Below are positions 7,669 through 48,462 of a stretch of 64,000 nucleotides of DNA, in pieces. How positions within the stretch are numbered: the stretch's first letter is position 1; every line of letters starts with the position of its first letter. The translations under genes were made by a program, and so were the position numbers. The notes beneath the pieces were generated by a model. The model made no database searches. It saw only the letters and a list, made by a program, of their open reading frames with translations, and had not been told where the DNA came from. This DNA is from Patescibacteria group bacterium. Lineage in GTDB: Bacteria; Patescibacteriota; Patescibacteriia; UBA2591; JAQUPP01. The stretch covers positions 413,046-477,045 of the forward strand of contig JAQUPP010000001.1 of assembly GCA_028716665.1 (NCBI GenBank), in the 5' to 3' direction.

Positions 7669-7826
7669 CTTGACCCCATCACATTGGAAATTATAAAAAT
7701 TACTGTCTTTCGTTTTTTATATACATGTTAATTTCTAATCTGAATTGGATATTTATTTTAATTTTTACTTTTTAAATCGTAATTTTCAAGAAAGACAATA
7801 ATTTCCTTGTGATGGGGTTGACAAAT
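7669..7826. repeat. MITE-like inverted-repeat element E1 with promoter-bearing right arm (GGGGTTGACA)
   Basis: About 35-bp terminal inverted repeats TTGACCCCATCACA...TGTGATGGGGTTGACA, with inner IR TACTGTCTTTCG/GAAAGACAATAA. Confidence 0.6.
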
Positions 7827-11440: not shown

Positions 11441-11473
11441 ATCATTTTGTTAAGACCTGCTTAAAGTTTTAAT

Positions 11474-11544
11474 TGCGGGGGGGGGATTCGAACCCCCAAC
11501 CTCCAGGTTATGGGCCTGGCGAGCTGCCACTGCTCTACCCCGCG
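11474..11544 (-). tRNA. initiator tRNA-fMet (CAT)
   Basis: Begins CGCGGGG and ends CCCCGCA-A (C1:A72 mismatch); alignable base for base with E. coli tRNA-fMet; anticodon CAT. Confidence 0.8.
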
Positions 11545-11795
11545 TCATTAAGAAATCGATTAGTTATTCTTTTCTTTTCCAAATATCCTTTTGTCGATTT
11601 TAGAAAATATTCTCTTTTATAAGCTTCGTTTTTATCGGAATATTCTTCATGATAGACTAACTTCCATGGTCGGCGAAATTTTGTCGCCCAATCTTTGCCA
11701 CGTTGATGTTCACTAAATCTTCTCTGTAAGTTAGATGTGCAACCGATATAAAATTTATTATCTTTTAAACTTTGTAATATATAAACGTAATACAC
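11535..11795 (-). CDS. GIY-YIG nuclease family protein (small, YhbQ/UPF0213-like), copy 1
   Basis: VYIL...KFYIGCT...R..EH motif set. GTG start. The last 10 nt including the stop overlap the 5' end of tRNA-fMet. Confidence 0.8.
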   Translation of the reverse strand: MYYVYILQSLKDNKFYIGCTSNLQRRFSEHQRGKDWATKFRRPWKLVYHEEYSDKNEAYKREYFLKSTKGYLEKKRITNRFLNDAG

Positions 11796-11808
11796 AATAG
11801 ATTTTAAT

Positions 11809-11867
11809 TTATGGGCCTGGCGAGACCCGAAGGGTGGCCCTTGGCCCTGCCACTGCTCTACCCCGCG
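11809..11867 (-). repeat. partial duplicate of tRNA-fMet (positions 1-37) carrying a 22-nt GC-rich double-hairpin insertion
   Basis: CGCGGGGTAGAGCAGTGGCAG-[GGCCAAGGGCCACCCTTCGGGT]-CTCGCCAGGCCCATAA, then divergence from the tRNA. Confidence 0.7.
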
Positions 11868-12118
11868 TCATTAAGAAATCGATTAGTTATTCTTTTCTTT
11901 TCCAAATATCCTTTTGTCGATTTTAGAAAATATTCTCTTTTATAAGCTTCATTTTTATCTGAATATTCTTCATGATAGACTAACTTCCATGGTCGGCGAA
12001 ATTTTGTCGCCCAATCTTTGCCACGTTGATGTTCATTAAATCTTCTCTGCAAATTAGATGTGCAACCGATATAAAATTTATTATCTTTTAAACTTTGTAA
12101 TATATAAACGTAATACAC
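11858..12118 (-). CDS. GIY-YIG nuclease family protein, copy 2 (tandem 323-bp unit)
   Basis: One amino-acid difference from copy 1. Its 3' end overlaps the partial tRNA copy just as copy 1 overlaps the intact tRNA. Confidence 0.8.
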   Translation of the reverse strand: MYYVYILQSLKDNKFYIGCTSNLQRRFNEHQRGKDWATKFRRPWKLVYHEEYSDKNEAYKREYFLKSTKGYLEKKRITNRFLNDAG

Positions 12119-12131
12119 AATAGATTTTAAT

Positions 12132-12190
12132 CTATGGGCCTGGCGAGACCCGAAGGGTGGCCCTTGGCCCTGCCACTGCTCTACCCCGCG
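12132..12190 (-). repeat. second partial tRNA-fMet 5'-half copy with the same 22-nt insertion
   Basis: Same sequence as 11809-11867 apart from one substitution in the anticodon loop; no GIY-YIG gene follows. Confidence 0.7.
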
Positions 12191-12240
12191 TCATTAATCT
12201 ATAATGATACCTTAAATTTAATATTTCAGCAAATTGAATT

Positions 12241-15703: not shown

Positions 15704-17938
15704 CTATTTTTGTGATTTGTGAGGATTATGCATGGAACATGCTTTATTACTGCATCTTTCGGGTATGGTTTTAGTTCCTTGCATCATTAAAGATCCGCAA
15801 AGGTCGCAGGTTTTTCCCGTTGGTCTGGATTTTATTATAAATTTGCATTTAGGATAATTGGAGCAGGAAAAAAACGGACCGAATCTTCCGCGGCGTTCCA
15901 CAATTTCCCCTTCGCATTTGGGGCATTTTACTCCGGTTTTTGCTTTGGCTTCTTCTTCAGCGCTTCTTTTAATAAATTTACATTTTGGATAATTGCTGCA
16001 AAAAATAAATTTACCAAAGCGGCCTTCGCGTTCCACAAGTTTACCCGTTGAACATTCAGGACACATTTCGCCGGTTTCTTTCGGACCTTCCATTATAGAG
16101 CCGTCTGCTTTTCTGGCGCCGGCGCATTCCGGAAATTTCGCGCAGCTTAAAAATTTTCCGGTTTTGGATAATTTTATGACCATCGGGCCGTTGCAAACCG
16201 GGCATTTGAATTTTTCATCAGCATCTCCAAGATTGGTTACCTTGTCTATTTTTTCTTTTGATTTAACGTCTTTGGAAAATGGTCCGTAAAAATCTTTTAA
16301 AACTTTTTCATATTTTATTTTTCCTTCAGCTATTTCATCAAGTTCGTTTTCCATTTCCGCGGTAAAGGAATCGCTGATATATTTTGGAAAATTATTTTCA
16401 AGAAAATCACTGACCACTTCGCCGGTGTCGGTGGGGTGGAGCGTTTTGCCGTCTTTAGTCACATATCCGCGGTCATTGATTGTTTTAATAATGTAAGCAT
16501 AAGTGCTCGGTCTTCCGATTTCGCGTTTTTCCAATTCTTTCACCAATCCGGCTTCCGTGTAGCGGCCGGGCGGTTCTGTTTGTTTCCCTTGGCTTTCAAG
16601 ATTCAATAATTCTAATTTTTCATCTTTGGATAATTTTGGTATTTGAACTTCTTCGCCCTGAGCTTCCACGTCTGCCGCGAGCCATCCCGGAAAAACAGTG
16701 ATGCTTCCGACAACGGAAAAATTAGGAATTATTCCTTCTTTATTTATATTGGCGGAAATTTTTGTTCTGAGCATTTTGGCATCAGTCATTTGAGAAGAAA
16801 TCGTTCTCGCCCAAATTAATCCGTATAATCTTTCCTGTTCTTCGTTTATGCCGGCGCTTTTTAATCCGATGTTTGTCGGACGGATGGCTTCGTGCGCTTC
16901 TTGAGCGCTTTTGCTTTTTGTTTTATAAATTCGCGGTTCTAAATATTTTTTACCGAAAGTTTTTTCTATTTCTTGATGGATTACAGGCAAGGCTTCTTTG
17001 CTGATAATCACGCTGTCGGTTCTCATGTATGTAATCAAGCCTTGTTCATAAAGTTTTTGAGCCACCATCATTGTGCGCGAAGGGGAAAATCCGAGTCGGG
17101 AACTGGCTGTTTGTTGAAGCGTTGAAGTGGTAAATGGCGCGCGAGGGGAACGTTTGGCTTCGGTTTGTTTTATTTCAGCTATATGCCAGGGATTGGCGCG
17201 GCCGGCTTCTAAAATTCTATTGGTTTCTTTTTCATCAGCCGGTTCTTTGTCGCAAGTTAAAATAATTTTATCTTGTGCTGAGCTTGCCTGTTCTGAGCTT
17301 GTCGAAGGCGTCGAAGCATCTTTTTTTTCTGTCTGGAATTCTCCGGTTAAAACCCAATAATTTTCCGGTATAAACGCTCTGATTTCGCGTTCTCTTTCCA
17401 TAATAATGCGCAATGCAGGTGATTGAACGCGTCCGGCCGAAAGTCCATAACGGACTTTTTTCCAAATAAGGCCGCTCAAATCATAACCGACAAGACGATC
17501 CAAAACTCGGCGCGCTTCTTGAGCTTGCCGCAAATTTTCGTCAATTTCGCGCGGATGATTTATCGCTTCTTTAATCGCGTTTTCGGTGATTTCATGAAAA
17601 ACAATTCTTTTTGGATTTTTCAAACCGCAAGTTTCTTTCAAATGCCAAGCAATCGCTTCTCCTTCGCGGTCAGGATCTGTCGCGAGCAGCACTTCGCTTG
17701 AGTTTTTGGCGAGACTTTTAATTTTGGAAACAACATCTTCTTTTCCTTTGGTGATTTCATAATGAGGAATAAATCCCGCTTTGATATCAATGGCTTTTTT
17801 ATTGCTTTTCGGAAGATTGCGAATATGTCCGTAAGAAGATTCAATTAAAAATTCATCTCCCAAAAAATGAGAAATGGTTTTTGATTTTGTCGGCGACTCA
17901 ACAATGATTAATTTTTTTTGATTTTTAGTTTTTGACAT
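15704..17938 (-). CDS. topA: DNA topoisomerase I
   Basis: TOPRIM and catalytic Tyr domain with multiple C-terminal C4 zinc ribbons; 744 aa. Confidence 0.9.
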   Translation of the reverse strand: MSKTKNQKKLIIVESPTKSKTISHFLGDEFLIESSYGHIRNLPKSNKKAIDIKAGFIPHYEITKGKEDVVSKIKSLAKNSSEVLLATDPDREGEAIAWHLKETCGLKNPKRIVFHEITENAIKEAINHPREIDENLRQAQEARRVLDRLVGYDLSGLIWKKVRYGLSAGRVQSPALRIIMEREREIRAFIPENYWVLTGEFQTEKKDASTPSTSSEQASSAQDKIILTCDKEPADEKETNRILEAGRANPWHIAEIKQTEAKRSPRAPFTTSTLQQTASSRLGFSPSRTMMVAQKLYEQGLITYMRTDSVIISKEALPVIHQEIEKTFGKKYLEPRIYKTKSKSAQEAHEAIRPTNIGLKSAGINEEQERLYGLIWARTISSQMTDAKMLRTKISANINKEGIIPNFSVVGSITVFPGWLAADVEAQGEEVQIPKLSKDEKLELLNLESQGKQTEPPGRYTEAGLVKELEKREIGRPSTYAYIIKTINDRGYVTKDGKTLHPTDTGEVVSDFLENNFPKYISDSFTAEMENELDEIAEGKIKYEKVLKDFYGPFSKDVKSKEKIDKVTNLGDADEKFKCPVCNGPMVIKLSKTGKFLSCAKFPECAGARKADGSIMEGPKETGEMCPECSTGKLVEREGRFGKFIFCSNYPKCKFIKRSAEEEAKAKTGVKCPKCEGEIVERRGRFGPFFSCSNYPKCKFIIKSRPTGKTCDLCGSLMMQGTKTIPERCSNKACSMHNPHKSQK

Positions 17939-19807: not shown

Positions 19808-20869
19808 ATGAGAATATTTTTAAGCGGCGGCGGCACAGGCGGTTCGGTCAGTCCGCTTTTAGCCATCAGCCAAGAAATAAAGAAACATAATCCGGAAGCA
19901 AAATTTTTATTTATCGGAACTCGCCAAGGTTTGCCGGAGAGGGAATTGGCTCAATCATACAATATTCCTTATCAACCGATTTTTTCCGGTAAATTGAGCC
20001 GTTATTTTTGTTGGCGCAATTTTGTTTCTCCATTTTTAATTATTGCAGGTTTTTTACAATCTGTTTTTTTAATTTTAAAATTTAAGCCAAAAGCTATTGT
20101 TTCGGCCGGGGGATTTGTCGCCGTGCCATTGGTTTGGGCCGGTTGGTTTTTCAGAACGCCGATTTTTATCCATCAACAAGATGTTATTCCGGGTTTAGCC
20201 AATAAATTAATGGCTCCTTTTGCTAAAATTATCACCGTCAGTTTGGAAAAATCGTTGAATGATTTTCTGAAAGAAAAAACCGTTTTGACCGGTAATCCGG
20301 TTCGCCCGGACATAAAAAATTATTCTCGAGAAAGAGCGATTAAAAGATTTGATTTGGAAACTAATTTGCCGACATTATTGGTTATCGGCGGCGGCACAGG
20401 CGCGGAAAATATCAATAAATTGATTAATAAAATTATTCCCGAATTGGTTAAATTTTGTCAGATAATTCACATAACAGGGAAAAGAAAAATACAAGTTGCG
20501 CAAACTCTAACTCATTATCATCAATACGAATTTTTAAACGAAGCGATGCCAGATGCTTTAACGATTGCCGATTTGATTATCAGCCGAGCCGGAATGGGAT
20601 TTCTAACCGAATTGTCAATTTTGGGAAAACCGGCGATTATAATTCCAATGCCGAATTCGCACCAAGAAATTAATGCTCAATATTTTGCCGAACAAAAGGC
20701 GATTGTTTTAATGGAAGAAAAAAATATCAATCATAAAATTTTATTTGATAAAATTCATCAATTGATTTTTGCCGCCAGCGAACGTTCTGTTTTGAGTTTG
20801 AATATTTCCAAATTGGCCAAGCCTGATGCCGCTTCCAAAATTGCGGAAATTATTTTGAAGAACATTTGA
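19808..20869 (+). CDS. murG: undecaprenyldiphospho-muramoylpentapeptide beta-N-acetylglucosaminyltransferase MurG
   Basis: N-terminal GGTGG motif and GT28 two-domain fold. Start placed at MRIFLSGGG. Confidence 0.8.
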   Translation: MRIFLSGGGTGGSVSPLLAISQEIKKHNPEAKFLFIGTRQGLPERELAQSYNIPYQPIFSGKLSRYFCWRNFVSPFLIIAGFLQSVFLILKFKPKAIVSAGGFVAVPLVWAGWFFRTPIFIHQQDVIPGLANKLMAPFAKIITVSLEKSLNDFLKEKTVLTGNPVRPDIKNYSRERAIKRFDLETNLPTLLVIGGGTGAENINKLINKIIPELVKFCQIIHITGKRKIQVAQTLTHYHQYEFLNEAMPDALTIADLIISRAGMGFLTELSILGKPAIIIPMPNSHQEINAQYFAEQKAIVLMEEKNINHKILFDKIHQLIFAASERSVLSLNISKLAKPDAASKIAEIILKNI

Positions 20870-23286: not shown

Positions 23287-23556
23287 ATGCCCGCCCAAAT
23301 TTTTTATTACGTATACATTTTGCGCAGTTTAAAAGATAGTAAATTTTATATTGGCTTTACAAAAGATTTAAGAAGAAGACTAGAAGAACACAATAATAAA
23401 ATGTCTACATCTACTAAATCAAGAGCGCCATTTACTTTGGTTTATTATGAAGCATATCTTCATTCAGGAGATGCCAAAGAACGAGAAAGATTTTTTAAAT
23501 CTGGGTGGGGTAGAAATTATATTAAAAAATCACTTAAACGTTATTTATGTCAATAA
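23287..23556 (+). CDS. GIY-YIG nuclease family protein, copy 3
   Basis: YYVYILRS...KFYIGFT motif set. The stop overlaps the murC start. Flanked by the two halves of a 34-nt palindrome. Confidence 0.8.
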   Translation: MPAQIFYYVYILRSLKDSKFYIGFTKDLRRRLEEHNNKMSTSTKSRAPFTLVYYEAYLHSGDAKERERFFKSGWGRNYIKKSLKRYLCQ

Positions 23557-25022
23557 AAAATTTAGGCGGGAAAAAAATACATTTTATCGGCTTGGGTGGA
23601 ATCGGGGTAAGCGCTCTGGCAAAAATGATGATTCAACAGGGCAAAAAAGTTTTTGGCTCTGATTTGAATTCTTCCGAAATAATCAAGAAACTGGAAAAAA
23701 TGGGAGTTAAATTTTATCAAGGCCATAAAGCGGAAAATTTGTCAGCTGATATTGATTTGGTTATTTATTCGCCGGCCGTGGAAAAAAATAATCCGGAAAG
23801 AATAAAAGCGAAAAAATTATCCATTCCCGAATTTTCTTATCCGGAATTTTTAGGAGAATTAAGCAAAGAAAAATTCACTATTGCTGTCAGCGGCACGCAT
23901 GGCAAATCAACCACTACGGCGATTTTGGGTTTGATTTTGGAACAAGCCAAATTGGATCCGTTAGTGATTGTCGGAAGTAAGGTGCCTCAATGGAATGGAA
24001 ATTTACGCATATCACGGACTAATACGGACTCAACGCGGACCAACACGGACAGTCAGCGTAAGTCAGTGTCAGGTCAGTGTCAGTCTGTGTTTGTGGTGGA
24101 AGCTTGCGAATGGCGGGCGCATATGTTGAATTTATCGCCCAAAATGATTGTTTTGAATAATTTGGAATTGGATCATACTGATTATTATAAAGACATCGAT
24201 CATTTAATTAGAACTTTTAAAACATATATTAAAAAATTGCCCAAAGACGGAGTTATAATTTTAAACGTTGACGATGTTAATTTGACCAAGCTTAAATCAA
24301 AAAACAAGACCATAACTTTTGGCATTAAAAATCACGCCGAAGTAATGGCGAAAAATATTATTACCAAACACGGCGAGCAAATTTTTGATTTATGTTTTAA
24401 GGGTAAAACTTACAATTTCCGGTTGAAAGTTCCGGGAATTTTTAATGTTTATAATGTTTTGGCGGCAACAGCCGGCGCTTTGGCATTGGGCGTTAAACCC
24501 GAAATAATTAAAAAATCCGTAGAAAATTTCTACGGGATTTGGCGAAGATTTGAGAAAATAGGGGAATATAAAAAAGCGATTATTATTTCCGATTATGCTC
24601 ATCATCCGACTGCTGTTTCCGGCACTATTCAAGCGGCTAAAGAATTTTACCCAGGAAAAAGAATCGTGGCAATATTTCAGCCTCATCATCACAATCGGAC
24701 TAAAAAATTATTTAAGGAGTTTATCAAGTGTTTTAAAGGCGCTGACCTGACAATCATTTCGGAAATTTACGATGTAGCGGGTCGAGAAGAAGAAAAAGAT
24801 CAAGATGTCAGTTCAAAAGATTTGGTTAAAGCAATCCGCGCCAGATATGAAAAAATTCCAAATTCCAAATTCCAAATTCCAAATTCTAAAAATGTTTTAT
24901 ATGCTAAAAATTTAGTAGAAGTTAAACAACTAATATTAAAGAACATAAAGCCAGGTGACGTAATCCTTGTCATGGGCGCAGGGGATATTTATCAAATTGC
25001 CAATGATTTGGTAAAAAGATAA
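23547..25022 (+). CDS. murC: UDP-N-acetylmuramate--L-alanine ligase MurC
   Basis: GIGGIGVSALA and GTHGKSTTT motifs and the Mur ligase C-terminal domain. Contains two odd in-frame repeat insertions (see findings). Confidence 0.85.
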   Translation: MSIKNLGGKKIHFIGLGGIGVSALAKMMIQQGKKVFGSDLNSSEIIKKLEKMGVKFYQGHKAENLSADIDLVIYSPAVEKNNPERIKAKKLSIPEFSYPEFLGELSKEKFTIAVSGTHGKSTTTAILGLILEQAKLDPLVIVGSKVPQWNGNLRISRTNTDSTRTNTDSQRKSVSGQCQSVFVVEACEWRAHMLNLSPKMIVLNNLELDHTDYYKDIDHLIRTFKTYIKKLPKDGVIILNVDDVNLTKLKSKNKTITFGIKNHAEVMAKNIITKHGEQIFDLCFKGKTYNFRLKVPGIFNVYNVLAATAGALALGVKPEIIKKSVENFYGIWRRFEKIGEYKKAIIISDYAHHPTAVSGTIQAAKEFYPGKRIVAIFQPHHHNRTKKLFKEFIKCFKGADLTIISEIYDVAGREEEKDQDVSSKDLVKAIRARYEKIPNSKFQIPNSKNVLYAKNLVEVKQLILKNIKPGDVILVMGAGDIYQIANDLVKR

Positions 25023-25240: not shown

Positions 25241-25975
25241 ATGTTAACTCAAAGGCAAAATCAATTGCTTAAAACCATTGTCTCTCAATATATTAAAACC
25301 GCGGAGCCGGTTAGTTCAGAGTCATTGGCTGATAAATATAGATTGTCGGCCCAAGGCCGATCCGCCTCGGGCGGAAAAATAAGTCCGGCTACTATTCGCA
25401 ATGAGATGATGGAATTAACCAAAGAAAATTTTTTAATCCAGCCGCATACTTCGGCCGGCCGTATTCCCACTGAGAAGGCCTATCATTATTATATTAAAAA
25501 TTTTTTACAGCAAGAAGAAGTCAGCCAAATTGAAAAAAGAAAATTAAACAGCGCCAGAAAAGAAAATCAGTCTTTGGAAATTTCAGCCAAGAGAATCGGC
25601 GAGAAAATAGCGGAGTTGACCAACGGATTGGTTATTTTGGCTTTTGATAAAGATAATTTTTATTACACCGGCCTTTCTTCCTTGTTTAGCCAACCAGAAT
25701 TCAATCAAATGGAAGTTGTTTATAATGTTTCGCAAATTATAGATCATTTGGATCAAACCGTTGCCAAAATTTTTGACGAAATAGAAAGCAATCACCGCGT
25801 TTTTTTGGGACGAAGCAACCCGTTTGGTGATTTTTGCGGAACAATTTTAATCAAATATCATACACCAAATCAAAAAAGGGGCGTAGTATTGGGTCTTTTG
25901 GGACCGATGAGAATGGATTACAACAGAAATATCGCTTTAATAGAATATGCCAAAGAGATATTGGACAAAGTTTAG
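25241..25975 (+). CDS. hrcA: heat-inducible transcription repressor HrcA
   Basis: N-terminal wHTH alignable to B. subtilis HrcA (SPATIRNEM) with an 11-aa in-frame insertion; CIRCE lies upstream. Confidence 0.85.
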   Translation: MLTQRQNQLLKTIVSQYIKTAEPVSSESLADKYRLSAQGRSASGGKISPATIRNEMMELTKENFLIQPHTSAGRIPTEKAYHYYIKNFLQQEEVSQIEKRKLNSARKENQSLEISAKRIGEKIAELTNGLVILAFDKDNFYYTGLSSLFSQPEFNQMEVVYNVSQIIDHLDQTVAKIFDEIESNHRVFLGRSNPFGDFCGTILIKYHTPNQKRGVVLGLLGPMRMDYNRNIALIEYAKEILDKV

Positions 25976-26306: not shown

Positions 26307-26837
26307 ATGTCAGATGAAGAAATAAAAAAATTGCAAGAAGAAATCGAATTAATGAAGCAACAAGCGGAAGAATATTTAAACGGCTGGAAAAGAACCAAGG
26401 CCGATTATCTTAATCGCGAAAAAGAAATTGATAAAGAAAAAATTGAATGGATAAAATTCGCCAATTTGGAATTAATTTTGAATTTTTTGCCGATTATGGA
26501 CAGCTTTGATCACTCGGTAAAAAATTTAACGGAAATAGAAAACAGTGGTTTGACAAGCTCACCACGAGATGGTTCGACTTCTTCGACAAGCTCAGGGCAA
26601 GCAAGCTCACCACAAGGCGAGTGGGCAAATGGCGTTTTAAAAATCAAAGACCAATTTGAAAGTTTTTTAAAAGCGCAGGGCGTTGAAAAAATAAAAACTT
26701 TGGGAGAAAAATTCGACCCCATGTTTCACGAAGCAATTGGCAAACAAGGGGAAGAGAATGAAATTGTTGAAGAAATTCAAAGCGGATACGTGATGCACGG
26801 CCGAGTTATCAGACCGGCGAAAGTAATAATTAAGTAA
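26307..26837 (+). CDS. grpE: nucleotide exchange factor GrpE
   Basis: GrpE coiled-coil and beta domain (FLPIMDSFD, FDPMFHEAIG) with a 23-aa in-frame insertion. Confidence 0.85.
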   Translation: MSDEEIKKLQEEIELMKQQAEEYLNGWKRTKADYLNREKEIDKEKIEWIKFANLELILNFLPIMDSFDHSVKNLTEIENSGLTSSPRDGSTSSTSSGQASSPQGEWANGVLKIKDQFESFLKAQGVEKIKTLGEKFDPMFHEAIGKQGEENEIVEEIQSGYVMHGRVIRPAKVIIK

Positions 26838-26868: not shown

Positions 26869-28809
26869 ATGTCAAAAATTATAGGAATTGACTTAGGAAC
26901 ATCTAACTCAGCTGCTTCTTACATGGAAGCGGGCAAATCAAAAATAATTCCCTCAGCCGAAGGGACAACTTTAGTTGGCGGAAAAGCTTTTCCGTCATAC
27001 GTCGCTTTCACAAAAGAAGGCGAACTTTTAGTCGGTGAACCGGCTCGTCGTCAAGCAGTGGCTAATCCGGAAGGCACAATTTTGGCCGCAAAAAGAAAAA
27101 TGGGCACTGACTTCAAATATAATATTTTCGGCAAAGAATACACGCCTCAGCAAATTTCCGCTTTTATTTTGCAAAAAATAAAAAAAGACGCGGAAATGTA
27201 TTTGGGCGATAAAGTGGAAAAAGCGGTTGTGACCGTGCCGGCTTATTTTAATGACGCGCAAAGACAAGCAACCAAAGATGCCGGAGCGATTGCCGGACTT
27301 GAAATCGTCCGTTTGGTTAATGAACCGACCGCGGCCAGTTTGGCTTACGGTTTGGATAAAGTTCAGGAAAAAGATCAGCAAGTTTTGGTTTTTGATCTCG
27401 GCGGCGGAACATTGGATGTGACGATTATGAATTTCGGCCAAGGCGTTTTTGAAGTTCGTTCCACTTCCGGCGACACCAAACTCGGCGGCACGGATATGGA
27501 TGAATCTTTGATAAATTATATAATTGATGAATTTAAAAAAGAGCAAGGCGTTGATTTGAAAGCTGACAAAATGGTAACCCAGAGAGTCAAGGAAGCGGCT
27601 GAAAAAGCGAAAATTGAATTGTCTTCAGCTCTGGAAACGGAAATTAATTTGCCGTTTATTACCGCCACCAACGAAGGACCGAAACATTTATTGATGAAAA
27701 TCACCCGGGCGAAATTGGAAGAATTGGTTAAACCGATTGTTGATCGCTGTCGTGTTTCAATTGAACAGGCGATTTCAGACGCCAAACTTACCCCCGCTAA
27801 TATTGAAAAAGTTATTTTAGTCGGCGGTCCGACCAGAATGCCGATTGTCCAGAAATTTATTGAAAATATTTTCGGCCCGAAAATCGCTCGAGGCGTTGAC
27901 CCGATGGAATGCGTGGCCATGGGCGCGGCAATTCAAGGCGCGATTTTAGCCGGCGAAACAGAAGTCAAAGACGTTCTATTATTGGACGTCACGCCGCTTA
28001 CTTTAGGCATTGAAACTTTAGGCGGAGTAATGACGCCGATTATTGACCGCAATGCGACTATTCCAACTTCAAAATCTCAGGTTTTTTCTACTGCAGCTGA
28101 CAATCAAACTTCAGTGGAAATTCATGTTTTGCAGGGAGAAAGACCGATGGCCGGCGACAACCGGACTTTAGGTAGATTTATTTTGGACGGCATTCCGCCG
28201 TCTCCAAGAGGCATTCCTCAAGTTGAAGTCGGTTTTGATTTGGACGCAAACGGTATTTTAACCGTCACGGCAAAAGATAAGGCCACTTCAAAATCTCAGC
28301 ATATTACCATTAAAGATACTTCCGCGCTTTCCAAAGAAGAAATTGAAAAAATGAAAAAAGCAGCCGAGCAATTTGCCGCTGAAGACAGAAATAAAAAAGA
28401 AATAATCGAATTGAGAAATCAATCCGACACTTTAATTTATACTTGCGAAAAAAGTTTAAAAGACGGCGGCGATAAAATTCCGGCTGATGTCAAAAAGCAA
28501 GTTGAAGACAAGGTTGCTGAATTGAAAAAAGTCAAAGACGCGAATGATATTGAAGTGATTAAAAAAGCGATTCAAGATTTGGGCGACACGGTTCAAAAAA
28601 TCGGCGCGGCGATGTATGGTTCGACCTCTTCGACAGGCTCAGAGCAAGCAGGCTCACCACAAGATGGTTCGGCCTCTTCGACAGGCTCAGAGCAAGCAGG
28701 CTCACCACAAGCCCCGGGTGCTCAACCAGAAGCCGGTCCGACAGAAGAAAAAAAGAAGGATGAAGGACCGATTGAAGGGGAATATACGGAAGAAAAACCT
28801 AAATCCTAA
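26869..28809 (+). CDS. dnaK: molecular chaperone DnaK (Hsp70)
   Basis: [28 protein letters not shown] signatures; 646 aa with two tandem 16-aa repeats in the C-terminal tail. Confidence 0.95.
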
Positions 28810-28880
28810 TATCTAAAAAATTTTAATGTCTAAACTCAAAAAGTTTAGACATTAAAATTTTGAGTTAATTAATAAAAAAT

Positions 28881-42491: not shown

Positions 42492-43817
42492 ATGGATAAA
42501 AAATCATTGGAAATTGTAATGTTCAATATGTCGAGCTTTTCAGAATGGGAAGGCGGCATTGTGAATCGCAATTATCATATTTTCAATAAATTATCGCAAG
42601 ATGAAAAAGTAAAACGGATAATTGCCGTTGATTTTTTGCCTTTTACTTTCAGAAGAGCTTTGAGAAATTATTTGGAAAATATTTTGAAAACCACAAATTA
42701 CAAATCTAATGCAGACATAAAAGTTACAAATATTTATCGGGATTTTACCACTAAATGCGTGAAAATTGTTGGATTGGCGCCGGCTGAAATTTATGTTTTT
42801 TCAACCATTGATTCAATATTTACCCGCCCAAATTTTTTGAAGAAAAATTTAGGCGGTTTTTCTTCTCATCAAATAGTTTTAAAAAAATTAAACAAGATAT
42901 TGATTAAAATCAACAAGAATCAGCCGGAAAAAACCAAGAGAGTTATTTGGTCATATTTTCCGATGTTTGTTGACTATTTCTCGGCCCAAGGCCGATCCGC
43001 CTCGGGCGGAAATGGCATACCCGCTGATTTGACGGTTTTCGACGCAGTGGACAATTGGATTGAACATCCTTCTTTCGCGCGCTATAAAAAATTATTAGAG
43101 AAAAATTATAAAATAATTTCCCAAAAAAGCGATTTAATTTTCACCGTAGCGGAAAATTTGGTGGAATTTTTTAAAAATTTAGGCAGGAACAAAGATGTCT
43201 ATTGGATCGCCAACGGCGTTGAACCCAAGCATTTTGCCAAGGAACAGTCTGTGCTTAAAAATGATCCCATTTTAATGATTTCTCGTCCGATTATCGGTTA
43301 TGTCGGGACAATTCAAAACAGGGTTGATTTTAATCTTTTGGAATATTTGGCTCAGCAAAATCCTGATAAATCTTTTGTCTTGATTGGTCCGCTTTGGCCG
43401 GTCTTTTTGAGAAAATTGCGCCGACCGACTACGGAAATAAAAAAATTGAAAAAATACAAAAATATTCATTTATTGGGCCGCCGACCATATGATTTGACAC
43501 CGGCTTATATTAAATTTTTTGACGTGGCGATTAATCCTCATAAACTCGATGAATTTATAAAATACACAGATTCTTTAAAGGTTTTGGAATATTTGGCTTG
43601 CGGTATGCCAGTGGTAACTACGCCGCCCTCGGGCGTGGAAAAATTTTCTCACCTTCTTTATATTGCCGCAGATTACCAAGATTTTAATAAAAATATTGAG
43701 ACAGCTCTTGCCGAAAATCAGCCGGAATTAAAAGAGAAAAGATTAATAAGAATAAAAGAAGAGGATTGGGACAATAAACTTTTAGAAATGATGAATATTT
43801 TAAAAACTAAGATTTAA
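42492..43817 (+). CDS. glycosyltransferase family 1 (GT4-like)
   Basis: C-terminal LEYLACGMPVVTTP. Contains the 34-nt palindrome and the 32-nt double-hairpin insert, both in frame. Confidence 0.55.
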   Translation: MDKKSLEIVMFNMSSFSEWEGGIVNRNYHIFNKLSQDEKVKRIIAVDFLPFTFRRALRNYLENILKTTNYKSNADIKVTNIYRDFTTKCVKIVGLAPAEIYVFSTIDSIFTRPNFLKKNLGGFSSHQIVLKKLNKILIKINKNQPEKTKRVIWSYFPMFVDYFSAQGRSASGGNGIPADLTVFDAVDNWIEHPSFARYKKLLEKNYKIISQKSDLIFTVAENLVEFFKNLGRNKDVYWIANGVEPKHFAKEQSVLKNDPILMISRPIIGYVGTIQNRVDFNLLEYLAQQNPDKSFVLIGPLWPVFLRKLRRPTTEIKKLKKYKNIHLLGRRPYDLTPAYIKFFDVAINPHKLDEFIKYTDSLKVLEYLACGMPVVTTPPSGVEKFSHLLYIAADYQDFNKNIETALAENQPELKEKRLIRIKEEDWDNKLLEMMNILKTKI

Positions 43818-48092: not shown

Positions 48093-48207
48093 CCTTACGG
48101 GCGAAGAAAATAATTTGCCAAATTTTGAAAATTTGTTATAATAATTTTAATATTGCGGGATCGTCCCTCGGCCGTAGCCAGTAGGCTACTGCCTACGGGC
48201 GAGGCTA

Positions 48208-48462
48208 ATGGTAAATAAAACAATGCATACAATTTATGTTTTAAGAAGTCTGAAAGATGATAATTTATATATAGGCTGTACTTCTGATTTACAGAAGAGA
48301 TTAAGAGAACATAGAAATAAAAAAGTTTTTTCTACTCGCAATAGGTTGCCAATGAAGTTAATTTATTTTGAAAATTACCCTGATAAATATGAAGCTTATA
48401 GAATGGAAAGATTTTATAAAACCGCTAAAGGTAAAAAAATAATTAAAAACAAAATAATATAA
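48208..48462 (+). CDS. GIY-YIG nuclease family protein, copy 5 (immediately 5' of tRNA-Gln)
   Basis: IYVLRS...LYIGCT motif set; flanked by 12-nt direct repeats TGCGGGATCGTC. Confidence 0.75.
   Translation: MVNKTMHTIYVLRSLKDDNLYIGCTSDLQKRLREHRNKKVFSTRNRLPMKLIYFENYPDKYEAYRMERFYKTAKGKKIIKNKII

Follow-up and report, generated by a model that had tools for sequence, protein, structure and literature searches.

Copies of a short GC-rich repeat in the dnaK, grpE and topA genes of a Patescibacteria group bacterium

A nested GC-rich unit in three genes

We analyzed a 64,000-nucleotide stretch of a Patescibacteria group bacterium (GenBank assembly GCA_028716665.1, contig JAQUPP010000001.1, positions 413,046 to 477,045 of the forward strand), referred to here as the window, in which a short GC-rich repeat lies inside the genes dnaK, grpE and topA (Table 1). 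An earlier note on this DNA had described a 48-nt unit present twice in tandem in the dnaK tail, once with a partial copy in grpE and once on the minus strand in topA, in every case in frame and in predicted loops or linkers. Searching the window for this unit returned an exact match at 28616-28663 and a tandem copy with one mismatch at 28664-28711 where shuffled sequence predicted 0 matches, and Tandem Repeats Finder called the doublet with a period of 48 and 2.0 copies at 97%. A fuzzy search added 26569-26616 (4 mismatches) and, on the minus strand, 17272-17319 (8 mismatches) and detected no 48-nt copies in the 64-kb window beyond these and the two in dnaK. The doublet, the topA copy and the full grpE copy were thus confirmed. 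The supposed partial copy in grpE proved to be a complete 24-nt short form. The three host genes were verified using Pfam, and all copies were in sense orientation and, as had been described, in the reading frame of their host.

Table 1. Copies of the repeat in the window and the genes that carry them
Feature	Coordinates	Strand	Description
dnaK tail copy 1, 48-nt nested unit	28618..28665	+	16-residue reading; outer half-sites TGG-TTCGAC...GCTCA-CCA
dnaK tail copy 2, in tandem with copy 1	28666..28713	+	45/48 nt identical to copy 1 in codon register
grpE short single-core form, 24 nt	26547..26570	+	GG-TTTGACAAGCTCA-CC-ACGAGAT; DNA GGTTTGACAAGCTCACCACGAGAT; reads GLTSSPRD
grpE full 48-nt nested unit	26571..26618	+	GSTSSTSSGQASSPQG
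topA full 48-nt nested unit	17270..17317	-	ASTPSTSSEQASSAQD; outer flanks TGC...GCA
Host gene dnaK	26869..28809	+	Pfam HSP70, E 2.9e-225
Host gene grpE	26307..26837	+	Pfam GrpE, E 2.6e-37; hrcA upstream
Host gene topA	15704..17938	-	Pfam Toprim, Topoisom_bac and 3 zinc ribbons (Zn_ribbon_Top1)

The window copies had a GC content of 54-62% as compared to 34.8% for the whole window, and the 48-nt copies were identical to one another at 37-45 of 48 nt when aligned in codon register. The first dnaK copy contained an inner complete core, CTC-TTCGACAGGCTCA-GAG. The inner flanks, CTC...GAG in dnaK, read TTC...GGG in grpE, and the outer flanks of the topA copy differed from the TGG...CCA of the dnaK and grpE copies by a compensatory change.

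The positions of the inserts in topA, grpE and dnaK are structurally tolerant. In the AlphaFold model of TopA (mean predicted local distance difference test score, pLDDT, 68) the insert residues 206-221 had pLDDT below 50 and linked the strands 193-203 and 224-229, consistent with a predicted loop between two beta strands. The GrpE insert lay between the two stretches alignable to solved GrpE chains, and the DnaK insert marked the start of the variable C-terminal tail, in keeping with the loops and linkers proposed earlier. Unrelated small inserts were found at the same turn in other TopA proteins of the candidate phyla radiation (CPR).

Codon identity between copies was compared to the expectation from genome codon usage. 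At residues shared by the grpE and topA copies 9 of 11 codons were the same with 3.1 expected (P = 1.5e-4), and the dnaK and grpE copies shared 11 of 12 with 3.6 expected (P = 5e-6). Per copy pair, 8-14 codons were identical with 3-4.6 expected, and the conserved codons included TCG, which makes up only 7% of serines in this genome. As this is far above what the peptides would predict, the copies are homologous DNA and not convergent peptides, and the concern that their similarity simply comes from encoding similar low-complexity peptides was answered. Differences between copies were synonymous and non-synonymous in a ratio of 8:23 in the host frame, 11:19 in the alternative frame and 3:28 in the third frame, and no selection is apparent on the host-frame peptide or on the basic peptide of the alternative frame.

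The conserved second-frame basic peptide had raised the idea that the element carries its own small gene, overlapping the host gene. A 66-aa open reading frame (ORF) starting with ATG (28616-28816, MVRPLRQAQ...) is present, and the alternative-frame peptide is similar between copies. However, this similarity follows from DNA conservation and few stops, and the ratio of 11:19 is no better than that of the host frame. The ATG is supplied by bases of the host or the junction (TAT|GG, GAT|GG), most members of the family described below lack it, and across phyla that frame is used rarely and only as the host frame (L085, L109). We regard a gene of the element's own as very improbable. The 66-aa ORF and an antisense ORF at 28559-28708 are a mechanical consequence of a stop-poor stretch.

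Filled and empty sites among relatives

TopA of the window was 100% identical to a protein encoded on a 640-kb contig of a metagenome-assembled Patescibacteria genome, and its named relatives were Wolfebacteria, Minisyncoccota and Parcubacteria. In an alignment of 45 TopA orthologues the 16-residue insert was present only in the window protein and in two proteins 97-98% identical to it and was absent in the 42 others, two of which nonetheless aligned at 97-98%. The contigs of these two insert-free orthologues, L121 and L122, carry topA and hrcA-grpE-dnaK in synteny and were 87-94% identical at the nucleotide level over the three genes (about 93% for topA and dnaK), allowing filled and empty sites to be compared directly.

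Recent gain and loss of the element was evident at all three loci. At topA exactly 48 nt were missing in both relatives. Their empty site, GAAAAAAAAGAC|AAAATT (AAAAAAGAC|AAAATT), contained no proto-sequence, and the filled site read ...AAGAT[48 nt ending ...CAAGAT]AAAATT. The dnaK tail held no copy in L121 (...AAMYQQAPGPQAPGAQ...), one in L122 and two in the window. At grpE, L122 had none, L121 had the short form alone (a 48-nt gap relative to the window) and the window had both the short and the full form. The dnaK insert was therefore common to the window and L122 and the grpE short form to the window and L121, and these conflicting patterns call for a minimum of one loss, parallel gain or recombination event.

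A further independent event was found in another TopA (P0020), which carries a 27-nt single-core copy (CCTTCGACTGGGCTCAGGACAAGCAAA, reading PSTGLRTSK) after ATAGAC|. A relative 89% identical to it (P0017) has the empty site ATAGAT|AAGGAG. Most of the 120 DnaK orthologues were without the element. A DnaK 77% identical to that of the window (P0135) carried a full nested copy after the same ATGTAT|, one 74% identical (P0227) carried the short form at the same tail site at the DNA level, another 74% identical (P0210) had the same short-form peptide at the tail, and an unrelated metagenomic DnaK on a GC-50% contig had the element after the equivalent ...ELY. With the family present at the tail of such distant orthologues, this site is a hotspot or an old site with turnover and not a single recent event. 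The expected lineage specificity was thus borne out by the topA insert and by copy number at dnaK and grpE, which varied between relatives about 93% identical, and did not extend to the dnaK tail as an insertion site.

The foreign composition of the inserts, at 54-62% GC in a 35%-GC genome, would fit an assembly or binning artefact such as chimeric GC-rich reads. The same inserts were present in independent assemblies (P0002 and P0003 from ENA, L122 from JGI), invariably had a length divisible by 3 and kept the frame, and belong to a family also found in isolate genomes and closed long-read chromosomes. An artefact is hardly credible given these data.

The family in other phyla

To determine the distribution of the element, one genome per GTDB species was scanned at the DNA level using the 27-mer pattern TTCGACARGCTCAGNNCARGCARGCTC, for which we estimated a chance expectation of about 0.01. 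At least 120 loci matched. Among the matches listed, the core TTCGAC-AR-GCTCA was unchanged in at least 8 phyla. The phyla included Chloroflexota, Planctomycetota, Pseudomonadota, Acidobacteriota, Actinomycetota, Bacteroidota, Verrucomicrobiota and Desulfobacterota, and from the CPR Harrison-, Yanofsky- and Kaiserbacteria. These matches came from isolates (Conyzicola, Variovorax, Sinomicrobium) and closed long-read chromosomes as well as other contigs, and ranged from 31-72% GC. The element is therefore not private to this lineage and belongs to a family that many phyla carry.

Searches of other collections returned little. There were 0 matches in IMG/VR, 0 in phage genomes and 1 in plasmids, on a Variovorax chromid. 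Rfam searches of 8 loci at E up to 1 found no family overlapping the element and detected only tRNAs and noise. In the searchable literature the DNA core, its reverse complement and three peptide readings yielded nothing relevant, further keyword searches turned up only papers on REPs, RPEs and RAYTs in general, and the family was absent from the tables of repetitive extragenic palindromic sequences (REPs) in PMC6006769 and from the supplements of PMC3733652. With phmmer, the 32-aa dnaK doublet had 0 hits among 1.84 billion representatives, and none of the 11 candidates from a word-indexed search for a 49-aa consensus scored. Queries this short and low in complexity cannot attain significance, and the range of host proteins was therefore drawn from the DNA scans.

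The basic module is the invariant 13-nt core TTCGAC-AR-GCTCA set between complementary stretches, which measure 3-4 nt and more than that in some phyla, with a CAAG-type tail behind them. In the 229 cores among the matches listed, the 13 nt were fixed while the 3 nt on either side were variable and yet complementary to each other. CCC/GGG was the most frequent flank type (84 cores), followed by GGC/GCC (13), CGC/GCG (9), TGC/GCA (8), TCC/GGA (7) and GCC/GGC (6), and together with rarer types (TAC/GTA, CAC/GTG, TGG/CCA and others) at least 12 stem types were present. Position -2/+2 formed a Watson-Crick pair in 89% of these cores as compared to 57% expected. The double form is nested and has the layout O5-TTCGAC-I5-TTCGAC-AR-GCTCA-I3-CARGC-AR-GCTCA-O3. 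The 24-nt form corresponds to one module, and the 48-nt form to the 24-nt form with a further 24 nt placed exactly between TTCGAC and AR-GCTCA.

Pairing of the flanks followed this nesting. Among clusters with two 3' half-sites, 76 had two 5' half-sites and 18 had only one. The outer flanks paired perfectly with each other in 46 of the 76 and inner flanks paired with inner, whereas crossed combinations were perfect in only 12-13. Covariation was evaluated on the 54 gap-free 56-nt elements, with the 57-nt elements set aside. In these, 67.7% of cells paired as compared to 56.7% after shuffling, and the covariation score was 0.318 as compared to 0.144 shuffled (0 of 500 shuffles reached the observed value in either case) and 0.08-0.18 when the partners were slid. 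Pairs 8-49 and 9-48 each showed three or more pair types in quantity.

The arrangement of the cores varied between phyla. In some Chloroflexota copies the outer stem reached about 10 bp (CCGTTCRYGC...GCRYGAACGG), and in other phyla cores were often found in arrays of alternating orientation resembling REPs and bacterial interspersed mosaic elements (BIMEs; L072, L007, L108). One such locus (L072) held 15 cores in 900 nt, some of them preceded by GTAG. The short form beside a double form seen in grpE of the window recurred in unrelated contigs (L128, L134/L147; ...GSTSSPQAGSTHSTSSGQASSPQA..., ...GSTPSTSSGQASSPQAGSTSSPQA...), which suggests a preference for inserting next to an existing copy. 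A tRNA-derived origin was considered, as GGTTCGA and AGCTCAG resemble the boxes of the T- and D-arms, and was dropped by reasoning as their order and spacing are unlike those of a tRNA.

Where the element lies in coding sequence a strong frame bias was observed. At the low-GC loci among the matches listed where the element is crossed by an ORF of 250 aa or more, the STSSGQ frame was used in 9 of 14 (P = 4e-4 against 1 in 5). A strict metagenome scan for the GG...CC double form yielded 29 contigs with 30 copies in all, of which about 24 were in this frame. Hosts confirmed by Pfam included UvrD, homocysteine methyltransferase (two inserts), L,D-transpeptidase (YkuD), IMPDH, ProA, DsbD, glycosidases, the tails of ribosomal proteins L22 and S16, Ser/Thr kinases, KsgA, HlyD, DnaG, transketolase, DnaJ, DnaK and sirohaem synthase. 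The spacer between the two TTCGAC was preferentially 3 nt in coding copies and 2 nt in intergenic copies, and in the P0020 copy an extra base within the core was compensated so that 27 nt were kept. Both are as expected from a filter on length and frame.

The bias to one frame and to sense orientation, together with recurrence at the DnaK tail in several lineages, could also be read as a repeat kept for its peptide, a Ser/Thr/Gly/Gln-rich linker or a phosphorylation or glycosylation site that was recruited repeatedly with DNA similarity as a by-product. However, most Chloroflexota and Pseudomonadota copies were intergenic and in alternating arrays, the hosts are functionally unrelated, and the insert was present or absent among near-identical strains. 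Identical rare codons such as TCG were retained in a 35%-GC genome, and differences between copies were mostly non-synonymous in the host frame. These data make a peptide function improbable.

Spread of the element and its relation to known repeat systems

Taken together, the five window segments probably represent a non-autonomous repeat, short and GC-rich, of the REP/hairpin type, of which only copies in frame and tolerated in loops would survive. Complete units were found at sites without related sequence and units were found inside and next to other units, with flanks that stayed complementary through sequence change. New copies would be pasted from genomic copies into fresh sites, some of them within or beside existing copies, giving rise to the nested and tandem forms. 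In a gene-dense genome of 35% GC almost the only survivors would be those with a length that is a multiple of 3, in sense orientation, read in the Ser/Thr/Gly/Gln/Ala/Pro frame and placed in disordered tails or surface loops, where the inserted peptide would act as a neutral spacer. Mobilization may occur in trans through an enzyme of the HUH/Y1, REP-associated tyrosine transposase (RAYT) or IS200 type that recognizes a single-stranded hairpin with a sequence-specific loop, and the symmetric flank could serve as the recognition cue instead of a short hairpin. Pasting may take place after an A-Y dinucleotide as in GAC|AA. This target rule draws on about five insertion sites, namely TTCGAC|AA (in the element itself), AAGAC|AAAA, ATAGAT|AAGG, ATGTAT|CAGC and GATAAT|GAAT.

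Several observations weigh against this interpretation. Terminal inverted repeats were not found, and neither was a consistent duplication of the target site, apart from an ambiguous AAGAT at topA that has no counterpart in dnaK or grpE. A scan of the 64-kb window and the L121-L125 loci for HUH-Y1 motifs found no ORF, and all-against-all clustering of 2885 neighbouring ORFs returned housekeeping families only. Two RAYT-like ORFs among the at least 120 loci (L029, L120) were rejected as partners because they are flanked by different, canonical REPs. The window copies, with 3-4 bp per level, folded as DNA no better than shuffled sequence (z-scores -0.45, +0.07 and -0.29, and -1.28 for the tandem pair), so the structural claim rests on covariation and not on thermodynamics. 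The collection scans demanded two 3' half-sites, which biased the sample to double forms. The near-absence from IMG/VR, phages and plasmids points to no vector that would have carried the element between phyla. The conflicting patterns of the window, L121 and L122 require homoplasy or recombination, and the dnaK pattern could equally result from an old insertion followed by losses. An apparent methyltransferase cluster in the comparison of neighbouring ORFs was also considered as a partner and rejected, as it reflected distant family-level similarity.

The same lack of a transposase in motif scans and neighbour ORF clustering would be expected if the repeat spread by template switching, microhomology-mediated repair or gene conversion, with the internal direct repeats (TTCGAC twice, ARGCTCA twice) driving slippage. 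The element has an internal periodicity of 9 and 15 nt, and short and double forms can interconvert through deletion between repeats. In grpE, AAGCTCACCAC repeats border the 48 nt by which the window differs from L121. The native dnaK flank CAGCAAGC resembles the CARGCARGC tract of the element, and the topA junction is ambiguous over AAGAT. However, the empty sites of topA and P0020 share at most GAY|AA with the element and yet gained complete units. Slippage cannot make an inner module with a stem that differs from the outer one and is likewise complementary, and the covarying flanks imply selection for structure or symmetry. We therefore consider spread by these routes unlikely, and favor insertion of a hairpin-type repeat. 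More tentatively, the window may be an outpost of an undescribed selfish mini-hairpin element that occurs across many phyla, with an invariant 13-nt loop, covarying short stems and insertion into its own loop, and that is a recurrent source of disordered loops and tails of the STSSGQA type. Its mover could possibly be an unrecognized HUH-type nuclease or a conserved host enzyme nicking TTCGAC|AR.

If this interpretation is correct, the three loci provide a clean, datable case of the essential proteins DnaK, GrpE and topoisomerase I gaining surface loops and tail segments from a selfish DNA repeat in minimal CPR genomes, with filled and empty alleles still coexisting among strains. The inserts give rise to spurious ORFs in the other frames, add to the low-complexity regions of protein databases and serve as strain-level markers. 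Identity of the core across phyla 40 GC points apart is hard to square with REPs that co-evolve privately with a resident RAYT. The distribution across phyla and the invariant loop are the surprising parts of these results, and we could not find the family described in the literature.

Other inserts were observed in the window and its clade. A second in-frame GC-rich mini-element was present at 25346-25377 (hrcA, ORF 25241-25975) and 42981-43012 (ORF 42492-43817), with the core GGCCGATCCGCCTCGGGCGGA identical at 25355-25375 and 42990-43010. It reads SAQGRSASGG and includes the perfect hairpin TCCGCC-TCGG-GCGGA. Its hrcA copy was absent in L121 and L122, and the GGSASGG peptide appeared as lineage-specific inserts in other CPR TopA and DnaK orthologues. 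In a murC-like ORF (23547-25022), in-frame repeats of about 10 nt at 24013-24084 (CACGGACTAA..., then GTCAGT...) read SRTNTDSTRTNTDSQRKSVSGQCQS, and this tract differed in length in L121 and L122 by indels of 9-29 nt, making it another variable coding repeat. L122 carried GC-rich in-frame inserts absent in the window, 33 nt in grpE and 30 nt in topA (GGLPTGASAKA). The murG-like gene of L121 had GC-rich in-frame inserts of 28 nt and 14 nt that the window lacks (murG region of L121 and L122, at about 19882-19895 of the window). Several GC-rich insert families seem to turn over in this clade. The alignment of CPR TopA proteins contained many small lineage-specific inserts at recurrent positions (KGGSASGGE, SARGGLASGW, NAEQRGTYAEPRG, FPISKQ, QQPITNNQQPITNDQ, GLPVRSQAEE), suggesting that insertion of repeats in frame is general to these CPR genomes.

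Outside these genes, a 323-bp tandem repeat (11524-12197, 2.1 copies, 98%) has its start within the 3' portion of a tRNA-Met gene on the minus strand (11473-11544) and reiterates the tRNA fragment GGGCCTGGCGAG...CTGCCACTGCTCTACCCCGCG. Two tRNA-Met genes and one tRNA-Leu gene lie nearby. At 48150-48212, in the AT-rich intergenic spacer from the end of one ORF (48092) to the start of another (48696), lies an isolated GC-rich inverted repeat, CCCTCGGCCGTAGCCAGTAGGCTACTGCCTACGGGCGAGG. It contains GTAG motifs and could be a terminator or a REP-like hairpin from yet a further family. A 148-nt AT-rich segment at 7675-7822 between the inverted repeats CCCATCACA...TGTGATGGG was absent in L121 and looks like an insertion of the MITE type (miniature inverted-repeat transposable element). 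L121 in turn had a LAGLIDADG-type ORF and, separating grpE from dnaK, 149 nt of inserted GC-rich sequence, neither of them present in the window (L121 14600-15184).

The element was compared to known classes of repeats. A plain tandem or low-complexity coding repeat was rejected, as copies occur in three genes, on both strands and up to 11 kb apart and the unit is found in other phyla; the dnaK doublet is itself a local tandem. Rickettsia palindromic elements (RPEs) are palindromic, about 105-146 bp long and were reported from Rickettsia (PMC3184786; PMC3733652, summarizing Ogata et al. 2000). The earlier note had likened the copies to these elements, and the likeness held in so far as a dispersed repeat of non-coding type lies in frame at tolerant positions of functional, often essential genes of a reduced genome, with presence and absence differing between close relatives as at dnaK, grpE and topA. 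It failed on the palindrome. The units of 24 and 48 nt are set apart from RPEs by size, and, folding no more stably than shuffles (z -0.45 to +0.07), they do not count as palindromic elements of the RPE kind. In addition, the core occurs in at least 8 phyla.

MITEs have terminal inverted repeats of 15-30 bp, target-site duplications and a size of 70-300 bp (Delihas reviews, PMC3184786). The present element resembles MITEs fused to ORFs (ERIC, YPAL, Correia/NEMIS, Nezha) in being a small non-autonomous repeat read through in frame with host ORFs, and differs in having none of these three features.

Like REPs, BIMEs and REPINs (REP doublets forming hairpins), the family consists of short GC-rich structured repeats and forms intergenic clusters of alternating orientation in other phyla. 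REPs are made up of a GT[AG]G foot and a paired stem of at least 7 bp, and their sequences are usually specific to a species or genus. Four of the five window copies end in GCTCA-CCAC, giving GTGG on the complement, and topA in GCAC. This end of the window subfamily may correspond to a GT[AG]G foot or a "double foot". As a family-wide feature this foot was rejected, since GT[AG]G lay within 16 nt in only 18 of the 273 cores among the matches listed. Some Chloroflexia and Vicinamibacteria copies have GTAG. Unlike in REPs, the loop is invariant and the short stem variable, and the window copies lack a GC-rich stem of about 7 bp. The window copies are all intragenic and in direct orientation, and inverted or BIME-like clusters were seen only for the family elsewhere. 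The core is identical across phyla, and the motif scan of the window, the L121-L125 loci and the matches listed found no RAYT link. Intragenic frame-preserving REPs are known from Opitutus, Thauera, R. conorii and inside tnpA-REP itself (PMC3733652, PMC6006769). As the element departs from RPEs in size and palindrome, from canonical REPs in stem length and probably also in foot and RAYT link, and from MITEs as above, we describe it as a small structured repeat inserted in frame and assign it to no named family.

The "peel and paste" transposition of IS200/IS605 elements and their miniature derivatives uses recognition of single-stranded hairpins and insertion 3' of a short specific sequence with no target duplication. 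This mode agrees with nesting exactly at TTCGAC|AR, and with empty sites that read AAGAC|AAAA and ATAGAT|AAGG. The element differs from them in that no transposase gene and no paired left and right subterminal hairpins were found. In the study of Quentin et al. (2018, PMC6006769), the repeats that flank class 3 HUH-Y1 genes had nearly identical sequences in Legionella, Planctomyces and Solibacter. They have another sequence (CnGAGCCGCGACCGTnAGGGAGCG), and share with the present family an atypical, weakly structured form without GTAG, a high copy number and a patchy overlap in Planctomycetes, Acidobacteria and Proteobacteria. With the class 3 repeats there is a precedent for conservation of REP-like repeats across phyla.

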